Below are positions 992 through 64,000 of a stretch of DNA of 64,000 bases, piece by piece. Numbering within the stretch: position 1 is the stretch's first letter; every line of letters begins with the position of its first letter. This stretch comes from a virus, in IMG/VR virus record IMGVR_UViG_3300049734_000491, positions 63,993 to 127,992 of that record. One strand, written 5' to 3'. A program made the translations under genes and the position numbers. The notes under the pieces are model-generated. The model searched no databases. It worked only from the letters and a program-made list of their open reading frames with translations, and was not told the origin of the DNA.

Positions 992-3900
992 ATGCCTGAA
1001 ATCGTCGGTACCGCGTATGTGCGGATCAAGGCCATCACCGACGGGGTGGCCAAGGACATCCAGTCCGGTCTGGACAAAGGTGCTGCCGATGTCGACGGCT
1101 CGGGGGCCGGCAGGAGAGTCGGCACGACCTTCACCCAGGGTGTGGTCGACGGGATCGACAAGGGTGGGGACGACGTCGATGCCAAACTCGGGTCGCTCGG
1201 CAAGGACGCCGATGACTCAAGTGGTTTCACCTTCGCCCAGAGATGGGCATCCAAGTTCTACCTCGGGCTCGAGAAGGCGACTGACAAGAAGAAGGAAGAC
1301 GGCTTCTTCAAGGGTCTGACCAAGAACCTCGACAAGCTCAACGACAAGCTGAAGGTTCCGAGAATTGCCCTCGCCGGCCTCTTCGGCGCACCGGCGATCG
1401 GTGGAGCGGTCCAGGCACTCGGGGGCTACATCGTCTCGATCGTCGGCCAACTCGGATACCTGAGCACCGCTGCGATCGGTGCAGCAGCCGGCATCACGGG
1501 AGCCTTCGGTGCCGCGGCGTTGGCCATCGGTCCGCTCATGCTGGCCTTCAAGGCTCAGACACCGGAGTTGGACGTCTTCCAGGCCAAGGCCTCGGCGATC
1601 GGTGACATCTGGAAGGACGTGGGTGTCGCCACCCAGAAGTACCTGCTCCCTGCCCTGACCGAGGCCATGGAGTCGTCGCTCGAGTTGGTGCCGACCTTCG
1701 AGGTCTTCGGAGAGAGCATCGGCGCCGTCTCGGGGATGCTCGCCAAGTTCGCGACGGAGATGTTGACCTCGAACCAGGTCAGCGAGCTCCTGCACAACAT
1801 CCTCGATGCCGCGATCCCGATCTTCGAGTCGTTGGGTCTGGCAGCGGTCGCCTTCGCCAGAGGGATGCTCGAGCTGTTCGATGCGGTGATCCCCTTGGCC
1901 TCACGGTTCGCCGGCACGATCCAGCACATGGCAGGGCAGTTCGCCCTGTTCATGACGGCGCAGAACCGCTCCGGTCAGCTGACCCAGACGCTCACCGAGT
2001 GGTACGACCGAGCCGAGTTGGTGGGCCAGGCGTTCATCGACTTCGGCAAGATCATCTGGAACGTGTTCAAGGTCGGTGCTGACGCAGCCACGCCGTTCTT
2101 CGAGACGTTTGCTGCGTTCGCCCAGAAGTGGGCCGACTTCTCGAAGACCGAGGTCGGGCAGGCCAAGATCAAGGGGATCTTCGAGGAGGCGGTCCCCGTC
2201 GCCCAGTCGATCAATGCCCTGCTACGGGACATCATCGGCTGGATCGTCCAACCGATCGGTAAGGACAGCTCGGGGATCGTCCGGTTCTTCGACACCCTGC
2301 GGACGGTCATGCTGCCGTCGATCCAGAAGATCGCCGAACAACTCACCGGAAACTTGTCTGGGGCCCTGGACACCTTCGTGCAGTCCATCCTGGGATTCCT
2401 GGAGGCAACTGCCTCTTCCGGATCACTTGAGGCATTCTTCGGGGTTCTCGGTCAGGTCCTCAACGTCCTCACCGCCATCATGCAGATCCCGGGGCTGGAC
2501 ACCTTCGTCGGCCTCATGCTGACCCTCGGCGGGGCGTTCAAGGCCGTCCACTTCGCGGCGAAGCCGTTCATCGCGGTCATGACCGGCTTCAAGGATCTCC
2601 TCTCGAGCAGCATGGGCAAGGCAGCGTTCAAGCCGGTGATCGAGGGCTTCGAGGCGTTCATCACCAACCCGAAGGGCGGTCTGACGGCGGCCAAGGACGG
2701 ACTCAGCACGTTCATCGGGTCCATCGGCGGAGTTGGCCTCGCCATGGGCGGGATCACCATCGCGGCCGCGGTCGGGGCTGCGGCCTTCATGGCGTGGCAG
2801 ACCAACGTCAAACGAGTTGAACAAGAGTCGAAGACCTTCGCCCAGACCCTCCTGAACGGCGGTGACGCCCTCGAGGAGCTCGACAAGAGCTACCGGAACA
2901 TCCTCAACACCCGGCAGTCCTTCGACTCCTCGATGGAGAAGAGTGGGATCAGCATCGCCCGTGTCACCAACTTGGTCAACGAGAACACCGGTGACGTGGA
3001 CAAGTTCCGGGCGGCATGGCACCACGCCGGAGGTGGCTTCAAGCAGTTCCGTGAGGAGGGCGGCAAGGTCCCCGCCTCGATGCAGGGCATCATCGCCCAC
3101 CTCGAGAAGCTGGGCGAAGCCGGCACCATGAGCCAGGGCGAGATCAATGAGGTCATCGACGGGATGACCGATCTCGACAAGCAGGCCCAGGCAGCCCAAG
3201 CTGGGATCGCAGCCCAAGCAGATCAACTGCTCAAGGCGGGAGAGGCTGCTGGCCTCAGTGCGGATCAGATGAAGTACTTCGCCGAGGCGGCAGATACTTC
3301 TGGGACGCTCGAGGAACAGAACGAGGCGCTACAACAGGGTATCGCTCTGTATCCGGTGATCGCCGAAGAAGCCGGTGTGTCGATGCAGACCATCACCCAG
3401 GTTTCCCAAGAGGTCAACCGGCAGTTCCAGTCCATCATCGACAAGCTCGACAAGTTGGCTGGTCGACAACTCAACGCTGATCAGGCCACCAGGGACTTCG
3501 CCCAATCCCAGATCGAGTTGAGCGAGAAGTTCGCCACGACCGGCGGCGTGCTGGCCGGCCAAACCAAAGAGGCCCTCGCCAACCGGGACGCCCTTGATGG
3601 CATGATCGCATCGGGCAAGCGGGCGGCTGAGGCTCAAGCATCGGTTGACTCGACCGGACAGAGTTCGATCGCTACCTTGAAGGGTTTGCAGCAACAGATC
3701 ATCCTGCTCGGACAAGCTGGTGGGTTGAGCACCGACGAGGTCAACGCCCTGCTCGATTCGTTCGGACTCTTGGACGACCAGCAGATCCAGGCCCAGGTGA
3801 GCGTTGCCACCGACCAGGCCATCACCGACACGGAGGCTCTCAAGAAAGAGATCCGTGAGATGGACGGGGTGACCGAGCCGGTGCGGCTCCGTCTCAACGC

Positions 3901-18079: not shown

Positions 18080-18358
18080 CGCCACCGCCGGCCGTGATTC
18101 CTGTGGCTGTCGGTGGGCTTTTGTCCGACGGTGGCGTGAGATGCCCCGCACCGCCAACCGCTCCTCGAAAGGCTGTCGAGGTAACTTCAGGTTGACGGTG
18201 CGGGAACCCGATGATCGCCACTGGTCTTGGCTGTCGATGCGACATCGGATCATTGGGTCGAGGGAGGGGCGGCTGTCGGATGTCCAATGGACCCTAGAAG
18301 GTGTCACCGCTGGCCGGAGTGCTTACAGCTGTCGCGAACTCTATGGGCCAGCGGTGAC
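18080..18358 (-). ncRNA. TIGR-like stem-loop guide array 1 (five units)
   Basis: Five hairpins whose loops read, on the - strand, NNN-N9-CGACAG-CYN-N9-CG with different spacers (one second spacer is 10 nt); directly downstream of the Tas-like gene. Confidence 0.85.
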
Positions 18359-18363
18359 GAGTA

Positions 18364-19218
18364 TTACAGACCCTCCTCTGACTTCCAGCGGGGCGGGAGG
18401 CCCGAAGCGACACGCCACAGGTCGATGCCGATCTGCTTGGCGGTGAACCGGAGGGCGGCGTTGTGCTTGTGGGCCTGCGTCCACTCCTCGCGGGCCTCGT
18501 ACTTCGCCTTGGCCTGATCGTAGGCATCACGGTAGGGAGACCGACGACGGGGCGCCCGTGTTACGGCTGTCGCGGCATTCGCGGCCGCGTCGTCGGTCAG
18601 GATGACGGGATCATCGGTACCACCACCGGTCGCGCACAGCCCAGCTCCCGTAACCACATCGGACTCGGTGGTGGTACCGGCCGAGCCGATCTGCTTGACG
18701 CAGGACTCGGCGAGCAGGTGGAGCAGCATCTTCGCCACGGGGTTGCCCAGAGCGAGGGTGTCTGCCTGGTCCATCCCCTTGCGGCGCTTGGCCGCGGGGT
18801 CGCCGTGGCCGCAGTAGGCCAGCAGCTGGCGGGGCGTGCGGTCGAACGGCTCGAGCGCCACGAGGTGGCGATCCTTGCCGCAGCGGAACGAGCACTCGTG
18901 CCCCTCGGGGGACTCGTCCATCCAGATCCACGGCTCGGCGTGGATGGGATCACCGATGGCACCGAGCAGGCGAGCCACGGTGTGCTCACCCAGTCCGACG
19001 GTGTCTCGGGCCCACGCGTAGAGCTCGGGGGCGGCGACACGGAAGGTCCGCTTCATCGCCAGCGCCAGCATCTTCTCGGTGGCCTGCAGGTTGGTCACGT
19101 GCTGGGTCATGGCCTCGGGGGCCGCTGGGATGTGGCGGAGTCTGTGCTCCGTGGCGATCCGCAGCTTCTGGGCATCGTGATAGCTCTCGGCGATCACCTT
19201 CAATTGGTCGTAGCTCAT
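18364..19218 (-). CDS. TasA-like Nop-domain RNA-guided DNA-binding protein 1 (IS110 C-terminal-like, no RuvC)
   Basis: Coiled coil, GLGEHTVARLLGAIG, QLLAYCG, GNPVAKMLL, SPYRDAYD..K, HKHNAALRFTAK; no DEDD domain; adjacent array. Confidence 0.8.
   Translation of the reverse strand: MSYDQLKVIAESYHDAQKLRIATEHRLRHIPAAPEAMTQHVTNLQATEKMLALAMKRTFRVAAPELYAWARDTVGLGEHTVARLLGAIGDPIHAEPWIWMDESPEGHECSFRCGKDRHLVALEPFDRTPRQLLAYCGHGDPAAKRRKGMDQADTLALGNPVAKMLLHLLAESCVKQIGSAGTTTESDVVTGAGLCATGGGTDDPVILTDDAAANAATAVTRAPRRRSPYRDAYDQAKAKYEAREEWTQAHKHNAALRFTAKQIGIDLWRVASGLPPRWKSEEGL
18540..18679 (-). ncRNA. Two guide hairpins embedded in frame in Tas-like gene 1
   Basis: CCG-ATGTGGTTA-CGGGAG-CTG-GGCTGTGCG-CG (18615-18679) and CCG-CGAATGCCG-CGACAG-CCG-TAACACGGG-CG (18540-18597), each closed by a long stem. 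Confidence 0.8.
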
Positions 19219-59603: not shown

Positions 59604-59835
59604 GATCCGTACCGTTTCCTTGGTCCCAGCGGGAACGTGGATGGGTCTGGATCAGACTCGCACAGGCCTGTGACAAAATCGAGGATGGTCTACCTCTTGT
59701 TGGAGGGAGTGGACGATCCCCGTGGGGTGGTGTCTGCCGCGACCTTGGCGGTGCCGGTGCCGGCTCCGGTGCTGGTACCGATGCGGTAGACGCCCCGATC
59801 ACTCGCCCAGAGTACCTGTAATCAGTTGAGGAATA

Positions 59836-60011
59836 GTCCCCAGCGGCGGTCATCAAGGGGGTATCGCATCTTCTAAGGCCGCTGGGGACCGAGGATGCCA
59901 TCGACGGCGACTCTGGTTTGGGCATCGCTACTTCTACGACCGTCGATGGCGAAGGTGTCCCCGACGGCGGGGTATCGGTGGGTATCGCATGTGCTCCGAC
60001 CGTCGGGGACA
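59836..60011 (-). ncRNA. TIGR-like stem-loop guide array 2 (three units; a degenerate fourth at 59730-59793)
   Basis: Hairpins with loops NNN-N9-CGATRC-CCM-N9-CG; spacer pairs GAGCACATG/CCGATACCC, TAGAAGTAG/AACCAGAGT, TAGAAGATG/CTTGATGAC. Confidence 0.85.
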
Positions 60012-60017
60012 GACCAG

Positions 60018-60866
60018 TCACGCAAGCGTCGTCAGGTAGAGGTTATAGAGCCGACGAAGGAACTCCTTCGAGGTCCGCCGGATGGCGGCGTTGTCAGCGT
60101 GTCCCTTCGTCCAGCCGCGCTCTGAGTACATGAGCTTGGAGAGGTCGAGGTAGCAGCGGAGACAGAGGTCGTCCCGGACAGCGTCGCTACTGTGGGTGTC
60201 GGTCATACCATGACCGCCCGGGACGACGAAGGTGCCATCGACGGCGGGGCATCGGTGGGTGTCGTATGTGCTCTGGCCGTCAGGGAGATCGAGGACGCAG
60301 CCCGGAGTGTGCTCACCGGCCTTCCTGATCTGTGTCGTGTTCAAGTAGAGCAATGACTTGATGCGGACGTTGCCGGACGCCATCGCCTCGGACTGTGTCA
60401 TGCCCTTGGTGCGGCGGCGGGTCGGGTCGCCCAGAGCGCAGTAGGACCAGAGCTGGGAAACGGATCGGATCTGCGGCTCACCCTGCACCAACACCCGTTC
60501 GTCCGTGCTCCCCGCCTCGGATCCGGGAATCCACCACTTCGGGATGGCGACCACCGGATGTCCGATCGCTCCGAGGATCCGTGCGACGGTGTGCTCGCCG
60601 ACACCGCGCTGTGCCGCGACCCACTCCCGCACCGGTTCGGGAACGACATCACGGTAGGTCCTCTTCAGGGCCTTGCTGGCGGCCTTCTCGATCTCAGTCA
60701 ACAGATGGATCTGATCGTCGAAGAGACCAGCAGGAGCGTGTCTCAAACGATTACCGGTAGCGATCCTCATCAGCTGCATATCAGTGAACTGATCGGCGGC
60801 GAGACGCAGGAGCCGGTACTGATCATCAAGGGCGTCGATGGCATCGACATCCTTGAGGTCGATCAC
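60018..60866 (-). CDS. TasA-like Nop-domain protein 2
   Basis: GVGEHTVARILGAIG, SQLWSYCALGDP, GNVRIKSLL, GHADNAAIRRTSKEFL; paralog of 18364-19218. Confidence 0.8.
   Translation of the reverse strand: MIDLKDVDAIDALDDQYRLLRLAADQFTDMQLMRIATGNRLRHAPAGLFDDQIHLLTEIEKAASKALKRTYRDVVPEPVREWVAAQRGVGEHTVARILGAIGHPVVAIPKWWIPGSEAGSTDERVLVQGEPQIRSVSQLWSYCALGDPTRRRTKGMTQSEAMASGNVRIKSLLYLNTTQIRKAGEHTPGCVLDLPDGQSTYDTHRCPAVDGTFVVPGGHGMTDTHSSDAVRDDLCLRCYLDLSKLMYSERGWTKGHADNAAIRRTSKEFLRRLYNLYLTTLA
60168..60281 (-). ncRNA. Two guide hairpins embedded in frame in Tas-like gene 2
   Basis: CCA-GAGCACATA-CGACAC-CCA-CCGATGCCC-CG and TCA-TGGTATGAC-CGACAC-CCA-CAGTAGCGA-CG, each within a stem. Confidence 0.8.
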
Positions 60867-61561
60867 GCCAGCTCCTTCGGCGGGACAACCGTCAGGAGTG
60901 ATGCATCGGTCGACGGTGGCTCGGGACGCTTGGCCTCGGGCAATGCAGCGAGGTTGGGCACGCCGGCCTCAATGAGAGCATCGATCGCGTTCTGGTGCCG
61001 CTGGCAGTCGGTCTGGAGCGGTTCAATGTACCGCCGGTTGATCCAAGCGATCCGACCAGCGTGCTGTTCGATGGTCGCCTCAAGCCAGTCGACGTAGTCG
61101 GTGCCGTCGAAGAACTTGTACCCACCGAGTTGGTCCTTGGCGAGACGCGACCACGTCCGATGAACCGGTTCGGTCTCAGCCACCTCGACCTCCTCGGTGG
61201 GGATGTGTTCCGATTCACCGTTCTCTGCGGACTCACCCTCCTCAGTGGCAGGTGGGGGAGTGGTAACGGGGACGGTGGGGGTGTACGGATCGCCCACAGC
61301 ATTCTCGGCATCACGGGTCAGAGCCCGCTGCCACGTCTTGGCCTCCTTGATGAGCGAGGCGAGGACATACTTCTCGTACTCCGCTGTGGTCATCGCCTTG
61401 ATCGCCCGCTCAGCCAGCTTCTCCGGATCGGTGGTGTGGGGCTCGTCCCGATGTGGAACCGCCGAGGCGAAGATCTCAACCAGTGGTCGGATCTTCGGAG
61501 TGGATGACGACGAGGTCGTCGAAGTGGGCGTGGTCATCATCGTCACGTCGACGAGTTCCAT
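60863..61561 (-). CDS. Tas-associated partner protein 2
   Basis: DGTDYVDWLEATIEQHAGRIAW...IEAGVPNLAAL; GTGA-coupled to Tas-like gene 2. Confidence 0.7.
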   Translation of the reverse strand: MELVDVTMMTTPTSTTSSSSTPKIRPLVEIFASAVPHRDEPHTTDPEKLAERAIKAMTTAEYEKYVLASLIKEAKTWQRALTRDAENAVGDPYTPTVPVTTPPPATEEGESAENGESEHIPTEEVEVAETEPVHRTWSRLAKDQLGGYKFFDGTDYVDWLEATIEQHAGRIAWINRRYIEPLQTDCQRHQNAIDALIEAGVPNLAALPEAKRPEPPSTDASLLTVVPPKELA

Positions 61562-61686
61562 GAGATCTCCCTGTTGGTCTTGGTCTTGGTCTTGGTCTTG
61601 ATCATCGGCAGTTGGCCACATGAAGCAGGGAGACCAGTAGGTCATCTCTCACACCGACTGCCGCCTCGGGTTCAAGTAGGCGTTGG

Positions 61687-61715
61687 AGTATACGAGTTGT
61701 AGTGCATGATTGCAA
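61687..61715 (-). promoter_or_regulatory. SigA-like promoter of TIGR-like locus 2
   Basis: TTGCAA-17 nt-TATACT on the - strand. Confidence 0.7.
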
Positions 61716-61807
61716 ATCGGCGCTGGCGGTCACCACTATGCATAAGTAGACCGCAGCCAAGTTGAGGAATCGGGTCGCTCGGGGAAATTTTTCAGTAGGG
61801 TCCGAAG

Positions 61808-62842: not shown

Positions 62843-63020
62843 GGTGGGCCCTGTCGTCAGTGTAAATGATGGTTCGGAACACGCTGGGCCGCTTTCCTTT
62901 CGGCTGTCGAGAAGCCATTGGACCCAGCGTGTTCCTCACCACATACAGGCCGAGGGAGGGCGGGGATCCTTCGGGGCGGGGGAGATTTCCTGAGAGTCCG
63001 CTACCCATCGGAGTGGTGGA

Positions 63021-63476
63021 TCAACTGGCCTTGGCGTCCTCGGCCGCCTCGGTTGCGGCAATCGTGGCCGCGTCCATGATCTCCACCGTGTGTCGGGCGG
63101 ACCGCTCGAGTTCCCGGACCGTCCGACCGTCGGATGACCGACCGCTCGTACCCCGAACGCCCGAGGAGAAGATCGCGTGGACCGTCGTCATCAGACGCTT
63201 GGCGTACTTGAGCCTGTCGGCGCTCCACACCTTCGTCTCCCGCTCGAAGCCGGGGATCAGCATGATGCGGTGGGGCTCCCGCCATCCCTGCCGAACGGTC
63301 GGGATGTTGTGCTTCTCCTCCTCGCCGAGGTGGTCCCGCAGGTTCTGAACCGTGAGACGGGCAACCTGGACGGAGCAGCCGAGGAGGTCAGCCAACTCGG
63401 CGTAGGTGAAGCCGGCTGGGTTGGCCTTCAAGAGGTCGTACAGCTTCTCACGACGAAGGATCGTCCTGGACCTCAT
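63021..63476 (-). CDS. HTH protein
   Basis: FTYAELADLLGCSVQVAR. Confidence 0.6.
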   Translation of the reverse strand: MRSRTILRREKLYDLLKANPAGFTYAELADLLGCSVQVARLTVQNLRDHLGEEEKHNIPTVRQGWREPHRIMLIPGFERETKVWSADRLKYAKRLMTTVHAIFSSGVRGTSGRSSDGRTVRELERSARHTVEIMDAATIAATEAAEDAKAS

Positions 63477-64000
63477 GACAGCTCCCCGAGTCGGGCCAAC
63501 TCGGCATCCCAGTCGATGTCGTCGGTGCCCCCGAAGCGGAGCCCGATGAGGTCGATCAGAGCCTTGAGCTGGTTGACCGTGTCCCGCAGGAGCTCCATCT
63601 CGTCGTCGGAGAGGTCGACGTCGTGGGCCTCCTTCAGGGCATCGGTGAGGTTGCGCCGAGCCGTCATGAACCGACCCTCGAGCGACAGGTACACGAGGGT
63701 GTGGCCGGCCTTGCGGCTCTCCTCCACCCGCTTCGCGCGGGCCTTGTCCTTGGCCCGAGCAGAGGCGGCCTTGGGGATCTCCTCCTCCACGGTGGTGCCC
63801 TTGGCCTCGGCCCGTTCGCGGGCGTGGTGGACCACGTCAGCGATCTCGTTCCGATGGGCTCGTGTCACGTTGCCCGCCGTCGTGCCGGTCGCAGCAGCGA
63901 TGGCCTCGGCCGCTGCGGCCTTCTCGGTGGTGAGACCGGCCAGCTGAATCTGGTCGTTGAGGGAGTGGGTGATCGGGGCACCCCGATCACTCGCCTCCTT
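63473..64000 (-). CDS. Hypothetical helical protein (5' end outside the window)
   Basis: Frame open from 64000 to the stop at 63473; ATGA overlap with the HTH gene. Confidence 0.55.
   Translation of the reverse strand, partial: KEASDRGAPITHSLNDQIQLAGLTTEKAAAAEAIAAATGTTAGNVTRAHRNEIADVVHHARERAEAKGTTVEEEIPKAASARAKDKARAKRVEESRKAGHTLVYLSLEGRFMTARRNLTDALKEAHDVDLSDDEMELLRDTVNQLKALIDLIGLRFGGTDDIDWDAELARLGELS

Follow-up and report, generated by a model that had tools for sequence, protein, structure and literature searches.

Two tigRNA units in frame within a tasA gene: a likely stem-loop TIGR-TasA system, with a proposed guide role, in an actinophage-like soil phage

Introduction

The closest described counterparts of the locus reported here are TIGR systems in which guide units lie inside a tas gene. 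In the available portion of their preprint, Xu et al. (bioRxiv 10.64898/2026.09.09.750476, 11 September 2026) describe stem-loop tigRNAs that lie in frame inside tas genes, among them the gene for Bifidobacterium longum TasA (BlTasA), whose wedge-loop units were recovered by small RNA-seq. As set out there, embedded arrays usually lie in disordered regions, though internal regions in general are allowed; CUU marks the processing borders, TasA proteins act as transcriptional repressors, and the route of spacer acquisition is given as unknown. For PlTasA the accessible text (PMC12045711; Appleby et al., 10.64898/2026.08.11.744272) reports a TasA dimer, arrays processed to single units and binding of both DNA strands. 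The subject of the present analysis is tas2, a gene on the minus strand of a 64,000-nt stretch of viral DNA (positions 63,993 to 127,992 of IMG/VR record IMGVR_UViG_3300049734_000491; the whole stretch is called the window), which carries two such units in frame (iA and iB) and is followed by three more (U1, U2 and U3; coordinates in Table 1). The locus is likely to represent a stem-loop TIGR-TasA system, carried by an actinophage-like soil phage, with two tigRNA units in frame in the insertion-1 loop of tasA and three after its stop, the units having a proposed role as guides and in feedback.

Results

Unit grammar, covariance and folding

All five units can be parsed as loops of 2+9+9+9+1 nucleotides around the box CGAYRCCCM, that is, a variable stem, C(A/G), a 9-nt spacer A, the 9-nt box, a 9-nt spacer B, C and the closing stem, which fits the consensus of 211 units from relatives. 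The box holds box D (CG) and box C (CCA), and the loops of the relatives open with CA in 185 and close with C in 189 of the 211 canonical units (48 loci). The iA loop reads CA-GAGCACATA-CGACACCCA-CCGATGCCC-C and the 30-nt iB loop CA-TGGTATGAC-CGACACCCA-CAGTAGCGA-C, and the open reading frame (ORF) stays open through both units (...LPDGQSTYDTHRCPAVDGTFVVPGGHGMTDTHSSDAVRDD...) into C-terminal helices that are conserved in all relatives. Identical direct repeats of at least 20 nt with single spacers, by which a CRISPR array would be recognized, are absent, the common part being the 9-nt box while the stems differ; the search against Rfam returned a sub-threshold chance match only.

A covariance model made exclusively from 144 units of other viral contigs was run over the whole window, on both strands and with no filters. 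Out of 70 matches (E up to 10), the five best were U1 (39.3 bits), U2 (36.9 bits), U3 (36.1 bits), iB (35.2 bits; rank 4, E 5e-5) and iA (31.3 bits; rank 5, E 3.4e-4), the last aligned only by skipping 9 nt (a bulge) in its 5' arm. The second tas gene of the window (paralog 1) contributed a unit at 18595-18542 with 23.2 bits.

The iB stem comprises 10 perfect base pairs and is extended to 15 bp by three G.U pairs, which work on the sense strand only. Its folding z-score was -3.38, a value equalled by none of 200 shuffles, and 6 of 300 synonymous resamplings of its peptide folded as well. The z-scores of U1, U2 and U3 were -3.75, -3.62 and -5.02, and those of the two paralog-1 units -3.49 and -4.23, with equally good synonymous resamplings in 1/300 and 0/300 cases, respectively; across ten control windows in the two tas genes, the fewest equally good resamplings amounted to 9/150. 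In the whole 64 kb, only 11 hairpins combine a perfect stem of 10 bp or more with a loop of 26-44 nt, and seven of them lie within the two Tas loci. The iB stem is thus retained beyond the protein-coding requirement, and the embedded units are real and well above chance. The first-pass annotation, a reading made from the letters alone, had seen here intragenic guides in a Tas-like gene and two in-frame 9+9 hairpins; that they are TIGR-type dual-spacer units inside a Tas gene is borne out by the covariance ranks, and so are the frame, the canonical loops and the strong iB hairpin, the iA hairpin being taken up below.

Within the conserved C-terminal coding part of tas2, at 60053-60111 (minus strand), there is a further hairpin of 11 bp, including one G.U pair, whose 37-nt loop lacks a box; it is probably due to chance.

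Identity of the tas2 protein

The AlphaFold2 model, built from 25 relatives (mean pLDDT 83), had as its top Foldseek match the TIGR-TasR structure 9mty (9mty_B; E 1.3e-5, TM 0.54), with TasH chains next and IS110-family recombinases behind both, at ranks 8 and 14. The profile of the same relatives matched TaTasR 9mty at E 1.8e-24 and TasH at 8e-12. Coiled-coil helices are modelled at residues 7-42 and 50-74, and because the protein begins at the coiled coil (residue 7), without a RuvC or HNH nuclease domain, it is a nuclease-less Tas protein of the TasA type. Pfam recognized no domain in the Tas proteins, and PHROGs places the tas2 product in phrog_4285, labelled 'transposase'.

Relatives of this TasA also stand in 81 Mycobacterium phage records (e.g. 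Bethlehem, Pari and Euphoria), annotated as transposase, helix-turn-helix protein or hypothetical protein; there the match ends at residue 184, just short of the insertion-1 site.

The insertion site and its recurrence

In the Methods of the available preprint text, Xu et al. (10.64898/2026.09.09.750476) define insertion 1 as TaTasR Q247-T249 and the wedge as G210-K230. In the profile alignment to TaTasR, the tas2 insert falls between ...SFIKQ and RTSVYRELYD, and by these definitions the units of the window therefore lie in insertion 1 and not in the wedge. The spacing of the anchors of the hidden Markov model (tas2 L175 to Y236; helix K..L.L to YR..YD) is 61 aa in both paralogs vs 12-24 aa in most relatives, so that the recurrence of units at one site in both genes, as first annotated, is confirmed. 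The two paralog-1 hairpins at this site comprise one of 14 bp with a diverged box CGGGAGCUG (18679-18615), to which three further pairs would give a 30-nt loop in our own reading of the predicted fold, and one with 15-nt arms, a single mismatch, a 30-nt loop and the box CGACAGCCG, identical to the box of the locus-1 array (18598-18539).

Fifty distinct genes were compared, namely the two of the window and 48 viral loci (58 minus 10 duplicates). Insertion 1 reaches at least 50 aa in five of them (both window genes, L003, L016 and L035) and the wedge at least 41 aa in 12, and hairpins are present there in 5/5 and 12/12 cases, respectively; the rest have short loops at both places. Homologs thus do show units at this site, in L003, L016 and L035, and units at insertion 1 are found in a minority of relatives, the wedge being used more often. 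Some of the closest protein relatives (P0002-P0007, P0018, P0020) have D-T-H peptides at the insertion-1 site.

The model shows the peptide encoded by the insert as disordered: pLDDT falls below 50 over residues 198-214 and 216-222, and no secondary structure is predicted over 183-227. An unbroken frame and a disordered stretch between secondary-structure elements agree with the description of intragenic tigRNAs in the available text of the preprint. The GC contents at codon positions 1/2/3 are 0.73/0.61/0.71 in inserts vs 0.68/0.48/0.81 in cores (786 codons, 16 genes with enlarged loops), and with this flattened codon periodicity the inserts thus look like RNA elements translated by happenstance.

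Could the insert instead matter as protein, its repeated D-T-H peptide and Cys/His residues perhaps binding a metal and its RNA hairpins being a by-product? Both units do encode x-D-T-H-x in one frame with flanking Cys/His residues, and 19 of 20 canonical wedge units of relatives read as D/E-T/A-H/Q in the same frame. Yet D-T-H is the translation of the RNA box CGACACCCA, and the non-coding arrays contain this box just as well; paralog 1 and L003/L016 use a different frame and peptide; the low pLDDT and flattened periodicity do not suit a protein element; and the stems exceed synonymous expectation, while non-coding units score with the same grammar. We therefore hold this explanation to be very improbable. 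The 19 wedge units concerned (in L035-L056) share a single frame and insertion-1 units use two, an observation which suggests either that the wedge inserts descend from one ancestor or that their frame is constrained.

Search for targets

The 8-nt 3' overhangs and the C-5 cleavage rule given in the available text of Faure et al. 2025 (PMC12045711) served to derive the form of the target: spacer A is read first and then, after a gap of 0-2 nt, spacer B as its reverse complement. The first-pass annotation had proposed targets of this same form. For the public scan this form was used with R/Y variants. Viral contigs yielded two target-like stretches with identical flanks, and genome contigs at least 120, the chance expectation being about 200 by our own estimate, which assumes uniform base composition. 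Of 82 stretches examined, 32 fall in one conserved gene (...YEHMWGIGRH...; GAGCACATG-TG-GGGCATCGG with a 2-nt gap; loci L064-L143), mostly in records titled Alphaproteobacteria. This candidate was rejected as one chance event multiplied by conservation, and the match was read as coincidence because the relatives of the phage's genes are in actinophages. Eight of the 82 lie in actinobacterial records, with flanks that are all different, and were likewise rejected as evidence of a target. By our own estimate the public matches are at chance level and contain no coherent actinobacterial locus; Xu et al. (10.64898/2026.09.09.750476) also remark, in the portion available, that short spacers make target calls unreliable.

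Many spacers of the phage's 14 units are AT-rich for a phage of 64% GC, and some resemble ribosome-binding sites (AGGAGAAAT, TTCGAGGAG, AAAGGAAAG); such spacers would fit targets in regulatory regions. Self-targeting of the array through the box-like spacer B of U1 and iA was considered and rejected, the adjoining 9 nt matching spacer A at 4/9 positions by eye and the genome search being empty.

Expression and proposed mechanism

A single sigma-70-like promoter was found upstream of the partner gene at 61.7 kb and none inside tas2. Three soil metatranscriptome runs each held one contig of 100% identity, covering 60171-60321 (iB and iA), 59961-60139 (the end of the ORF into U1) and 59857-60000 (U3, U2 and U1). 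Unit-bearing sequence is present in RNA libraries, and transcription is not thereby proven.

In the mechanism that we propose, the partner gene, tasA and the array would be transcribed together from the promoter at 61.7 kb and TasA dimers would bind each unit in the transcript, and host RNases could trim at CUU linkers. The released guides, of ~55-60 nt, may direct TasA to 9+9-bp DNA sites in which spacer A is joined to spacer B in reverse complement, and TasA bound there would block transcription. RNA-guided DNA binding and repression are known for other TasA proteins only. Releasing or binding iA or iB would cut or block the tasA message and so could couple guide production to TasA synthesis, a coupling that would probably amount to negative feedback.

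Several observations weigh against this account. The contigs from the RNA libraries are short (151-179 nt) with a depth of 3-4, are possibly library DNA and cannot show RNA ends. CUU is present in two of the six linkers around the five units (iA-iB and U1-U2; ACCTTC) and absent from the other four borders. The loops of U1-U3 open with CG or CT, which are rare in the family (CG 6/211, CT 2/211). The iA arms pair poorly (z -1.09), with equally good folds in 29 of 200 shuffles and in 243 of 300 synonymous resamplings, so that tas2 holds at most one good hairpin and iA can be called a 'hairpin' only weakly; this is the part of the two-hairpin claim that did not survive, and the shuffling check that accompanied it favours iB in the fold and both units in the covariance model, with iA failing in the fold. 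Spacer B of U1 and iA resembles the box, so this pair may not be normal target-derived guides. Finally, the targets for which the first-pass annotation had suggested a search in actinobacterial and phage sequences did not emerge: besides the chance-level public matches, the phage's own 128-kb genome, searched with 14 units in two geometries and with gaps of 0-2 nt, contains no target at two or fewer mismatches, and its matches at three mismatches (0-2 per unit vs a shuffled-spacer mean of 0.145) were judged about as frequent as with shuffled spacers.

In an alternative account, the embedded units are TasA binding sites that control the translation or stability of their own mRNA, and guides come from the downstream array alone. 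L7Ae and L30 ribosomal proteins autoregulate through their own mRNA. The units carry the full protein-binding grammar and lie in the message, no internal promoter was found, and iA combines a canonical loop with a decayed stem, a decay that a binding site would tolerate more readily than a processed guide. Against this stand the iB spacers, which are unique and unit-like, and the small RNA-seq of BlTasA, in which embedded units were recovered as tigRNAs in the purified complex according to the available text of Xu et al. We regard this alternative as unlikely, and it is in any case compatible with a guide role.

The twin unit iA/U1 and its mosaic arms

The first-pass annotation had noticed that an embedded unit differs from a downstream unit by one base per spacer and that its arm matches the stem at 59897-59950; both statements hold exactly. 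Aligned in register, iA and U1 are identical at 53 of 70 positions, with 8/9 in spacer A, 8/9 in the box, 8/9 in spacer B and 7/8 in the linker region, the identity thus spanning the spacers, the box and the ACCTTCG linker. Two 9-mers at 8/9 each cannot be chance by our estimate of ~1e-8 per pair, and the alignment supports a common ancestry of the two units. Such twins are rare among the relatives, with one of 558 within-locus canonical pairs differing at two or fewer of 18 spacer positions (L014).

The 5' arm of iA agrees with U1 at 9/12 positions and with U2 at 6/12, whereas its 3' arm, CCGTCGATGGC, agrees with U2 (59897-59950) at 12/12 and with U1 at 9/12, the linker being U1-like again. 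Wherever U1 and U2 differ, iA sides with U1, the exceptions being three consecutive informative 3'-arm sites, one spacer-B site and one 5'-flank site. It is because its arms are mosaic that the iA stem no longer pairs, and exchange of a short patch between units explains the pattern better than three random substitutions would. The differences between iA and U1 number 2/18 in the spacers vs 6/24 in the arms, the spacers not being significantly better kept, so that selection for a common iA/U1 target is not demonstrable. The iB stem is of the U1 type, agreeing at 10/12 positions in each arm; it departs from U1 by a single compensatory pair change and by two pairs turned into G.U, which is what sense-strand selection at the RNA level predicts.

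In both U1 and iA, the loop box (CGATACCCA / CGACACCCA) is followed by a spacer B (CCGATACCC / CCGATGCCC) that almost repeats it in tandem (59969-59987 and 60246-60264), and this spacer looks like a 10-nt slip duplication rather than a captured target sequence.

Within the proposed account, iA would have arisen by duplication of a U1-type unit, after which a short patch would have been exchanged with a U2-type arm and its stem broken. iA is probably a twin of U1 that has weakened or is decaying, and it may be a decaying copy rather than a second working guide. A further alternative is that the embedded units, chiefly iA, are neutral relics, pieces of the array duplicated into a sequence-tolerant loop and decaying without function. 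The iA stem is indeed no better than chance, iA is redundant with U1, the loop is disordered and most relatives lack an insert there (in the majority of the 50 genes, insertion 1 measures 12-24 aa). However, iB and both paralog-1 units keep strong stems beyond coding need; the iB stem departs from that of U1 by a compensatory pair change and changes to G.U; two units are kept at this site in two paralogs as diverged as 35% identity; and hairpins occur in every enlarged wedge or insertion 1 of the relatives. Taken together, these observations make functionless decay quite improbable, and the stem-loop TIGR-TasA system with embedded guides remains the preferred reading.

The first-pass annotation had further suggested that units are copied between the ORF and the array by recombination. 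The shared ancestry of iA and U1 and the mosaic arms fit such copying by short-patch exchange, whether from the ORF to the array or the other way; for the twin, this reading is plausible and not proven. Its suggestion that the near-duplicates may track variants of one target stays conjectural, the target searches having given no candidate above the estimated chance level. A broader version, in which ORF and array units form one exchanging pool by unit duplication, patch swaps and point changes in spacers, the iA/U1 twins being an intermediate that covers two target alleles, is a speculation to which we give little credence. If true, it would be a first concrete route for TIGR spacer turnover, which the literature calls unknown, and as a side effect, pairing of the iA 3' arm with U2 could tie U2 maturation to the state of the tasA message.

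The U2 arm GCCGUCGAUGGC (U2 at 59897-59950; iA 3' arm at 60234-60245) is nearly self-complementary, with two G.U pairs, and the iA 3' arm is therefore able to pair with either U2 arm. The minimum-energy fold of a 511-nt transcript contains this pairing, at only 3.5 kcal/mol better than a forced U2 stem, and it was not used as evidence.

Elsewhere in the family, two stem sequences alternate along the array of L004 with entirely different spacers; L014 has a duplicated three-unit block with 0-2 spacer changes in one pair; and the 48 loci contain 10 within-locus pairs with an identical 5' arm and at least 8/18 spacer differences. Copying of a stem can go together with replacement of its spacers. 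The locus had no megablast match in the phage collection, viral contigs contained 0 matches to a degenerate 27-nt pattern derived from the iA/U1 loop, and the 90% protein clusters contain only identical or shortened copies.

Layout of the locus and further units

The features of both loci are collected in Table 1. Locus 2 is compact, with the partner gene, the 282-aa TasA and five units within ~1.9 kb, and the partner gene matched neither Pfam nor PHROG families. The ACCTTC linker is found again after U1 and after unit 1 of the locus-1 array. The phage record comprises 127,992 bp at an estimated completeness of 95%, and in the phage collection the relatives of its Cas4-like nuclease and of its Tas protein occur only in Gordonia, Microbacterium, Arthrobacter, Mycobacterium and Rhodococcus phages and in one Actinomycetia phage record.

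Table 1 Positions of the tas genes, their units and neighbouring features in the window
Feature	Positions	Strand	Basis or remark
tasA-type gene 2 (tas2), 282 aa, nuclease-less Nop-domain Tas protein	60018..60866	-	ORF list, fold, profile
Intragenic unit iA	60234..60296 (60286-60234, or from 60296 with bulge)	-	Canonical loop, decayed stem
Linker ACCTTC between iA and iB	60228..60233	-	Contains CUU
Intragenic unit iB	60168..60227	-	Perfect 10-bp stem; 15 bp counting G.U pairs
Downstream array: U1 60011-59956, U2 59950-59897, U3 59890-59835	59835..60011	-	Perfect 11-13-bp stems
Upstream partner gene, 260 aa, no family match	60863..61645	-	Stop overlaps tas2 start
Sigma-70-like promoter TTGCAA-17-TATACT	61687..61716	-	Sole candidate found for the operon
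tasA-type gene 1 (paralog 1), 284 aa, 35% identical to tas2	18364..19218	-	Sequence comparison
Two intragenic units of paralog 1	18539..18679	-	18679-18615 and 18598-18539; same protein site
Locus-1 downstream array, box CGACAGCY	18080..18358	-	Stems, covariance model

An orphan canonical unit lies at 62876-62935 (minus strand), separated from locus 2 by 2 kb and from locus 1 by 44 kb, 3' of a 151-aa ORF at 63021-63476. It has a 15-bp stem and the loop CA-ATGGCTTCT-CGACAGCCG-AAAGGAAAG-C, carries the locus-1 box and scores 26.2 bits with the family covariance model. Outside the window, on the plus strand, three further units stand at record positions 3366-3413, 3550-3599 and 3662-3711, with the box CGACAGCC or CGACGGCC and distant from both tas genes. 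The phage thus bears TIGR units in at least four places.

Discussion

Overall, we present an independent natural example of guide RNAs placed inside the gene of the protein that would use them, at a second protein site and twice in one phage. It lends support to the idea that, in stem-loop Tas proteins, enlarged loops are for the most part the imprint of embedded guides, and the mosaic-armed twin offers a small concrete clue to how TIGR arrays change, a question left open by published work. In its compactness, the locus is also a convenient test case for the coupling of guide maturation to effector translation.

Comparison with known systems

Since intragenic tigRNAs are already reported in the available text of Xu et al., the locus belongs to a known kind, TIGR-TasA with embedded guides. 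Its nearest likeness is the BlTasA locus, which, as far as that text describes it, shares a nuclease-less TasA, two in-frame units in a flexible coding loop, more units outside the gene and CUU at unit borders, the last being present at two of the six borders of the phage units. The BlTasA units lie in the wedge, whereas those of the phage lie in insertion 1, ~20 residues further on in TaTasR numbering; unlike BlTasA, as so described, the phage, which is known from its DNA sequence, has two paralogous systems with different loop boxes and an embedded near-twin of an array unit. A word search of the available preprint text (10.64898/2026.09.09.750476) returned no mention of unit duplication or paralogs.

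PlTasA is likewise a TasA with hairpin guides whose two spacers are flanked by box C/D, but its units are described in arrays outside the gene, the accessible text making no mention of embedded ones (PMC12045711; 10.64898/2026.08.11.744272). The dual-repeat TaTasR (9mty), the best structural and profile match, shares the Nop fold and the 9+9 tandem-spacer logic; it differs in its RuvC nuclease, its fixed 36-nt guides with conserved repeats and its Y/H processing loop, where the phage system has variable stems and lacks a nuclease. The IS110/IS621 bridge RNA recombinases have a related RNA-binding domain and are the next-best fold matches; unlike the phage system, they catalyse recombination with one bispecific bridge RNA and have neither arrays nor embedded units. 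Set beside these systems, what the phage locus contributes are modest additions: an insertion-1 site rather than the wedge, recurrence in two paralogs with different boxes, and a rare mosaic twin of a guide unit.

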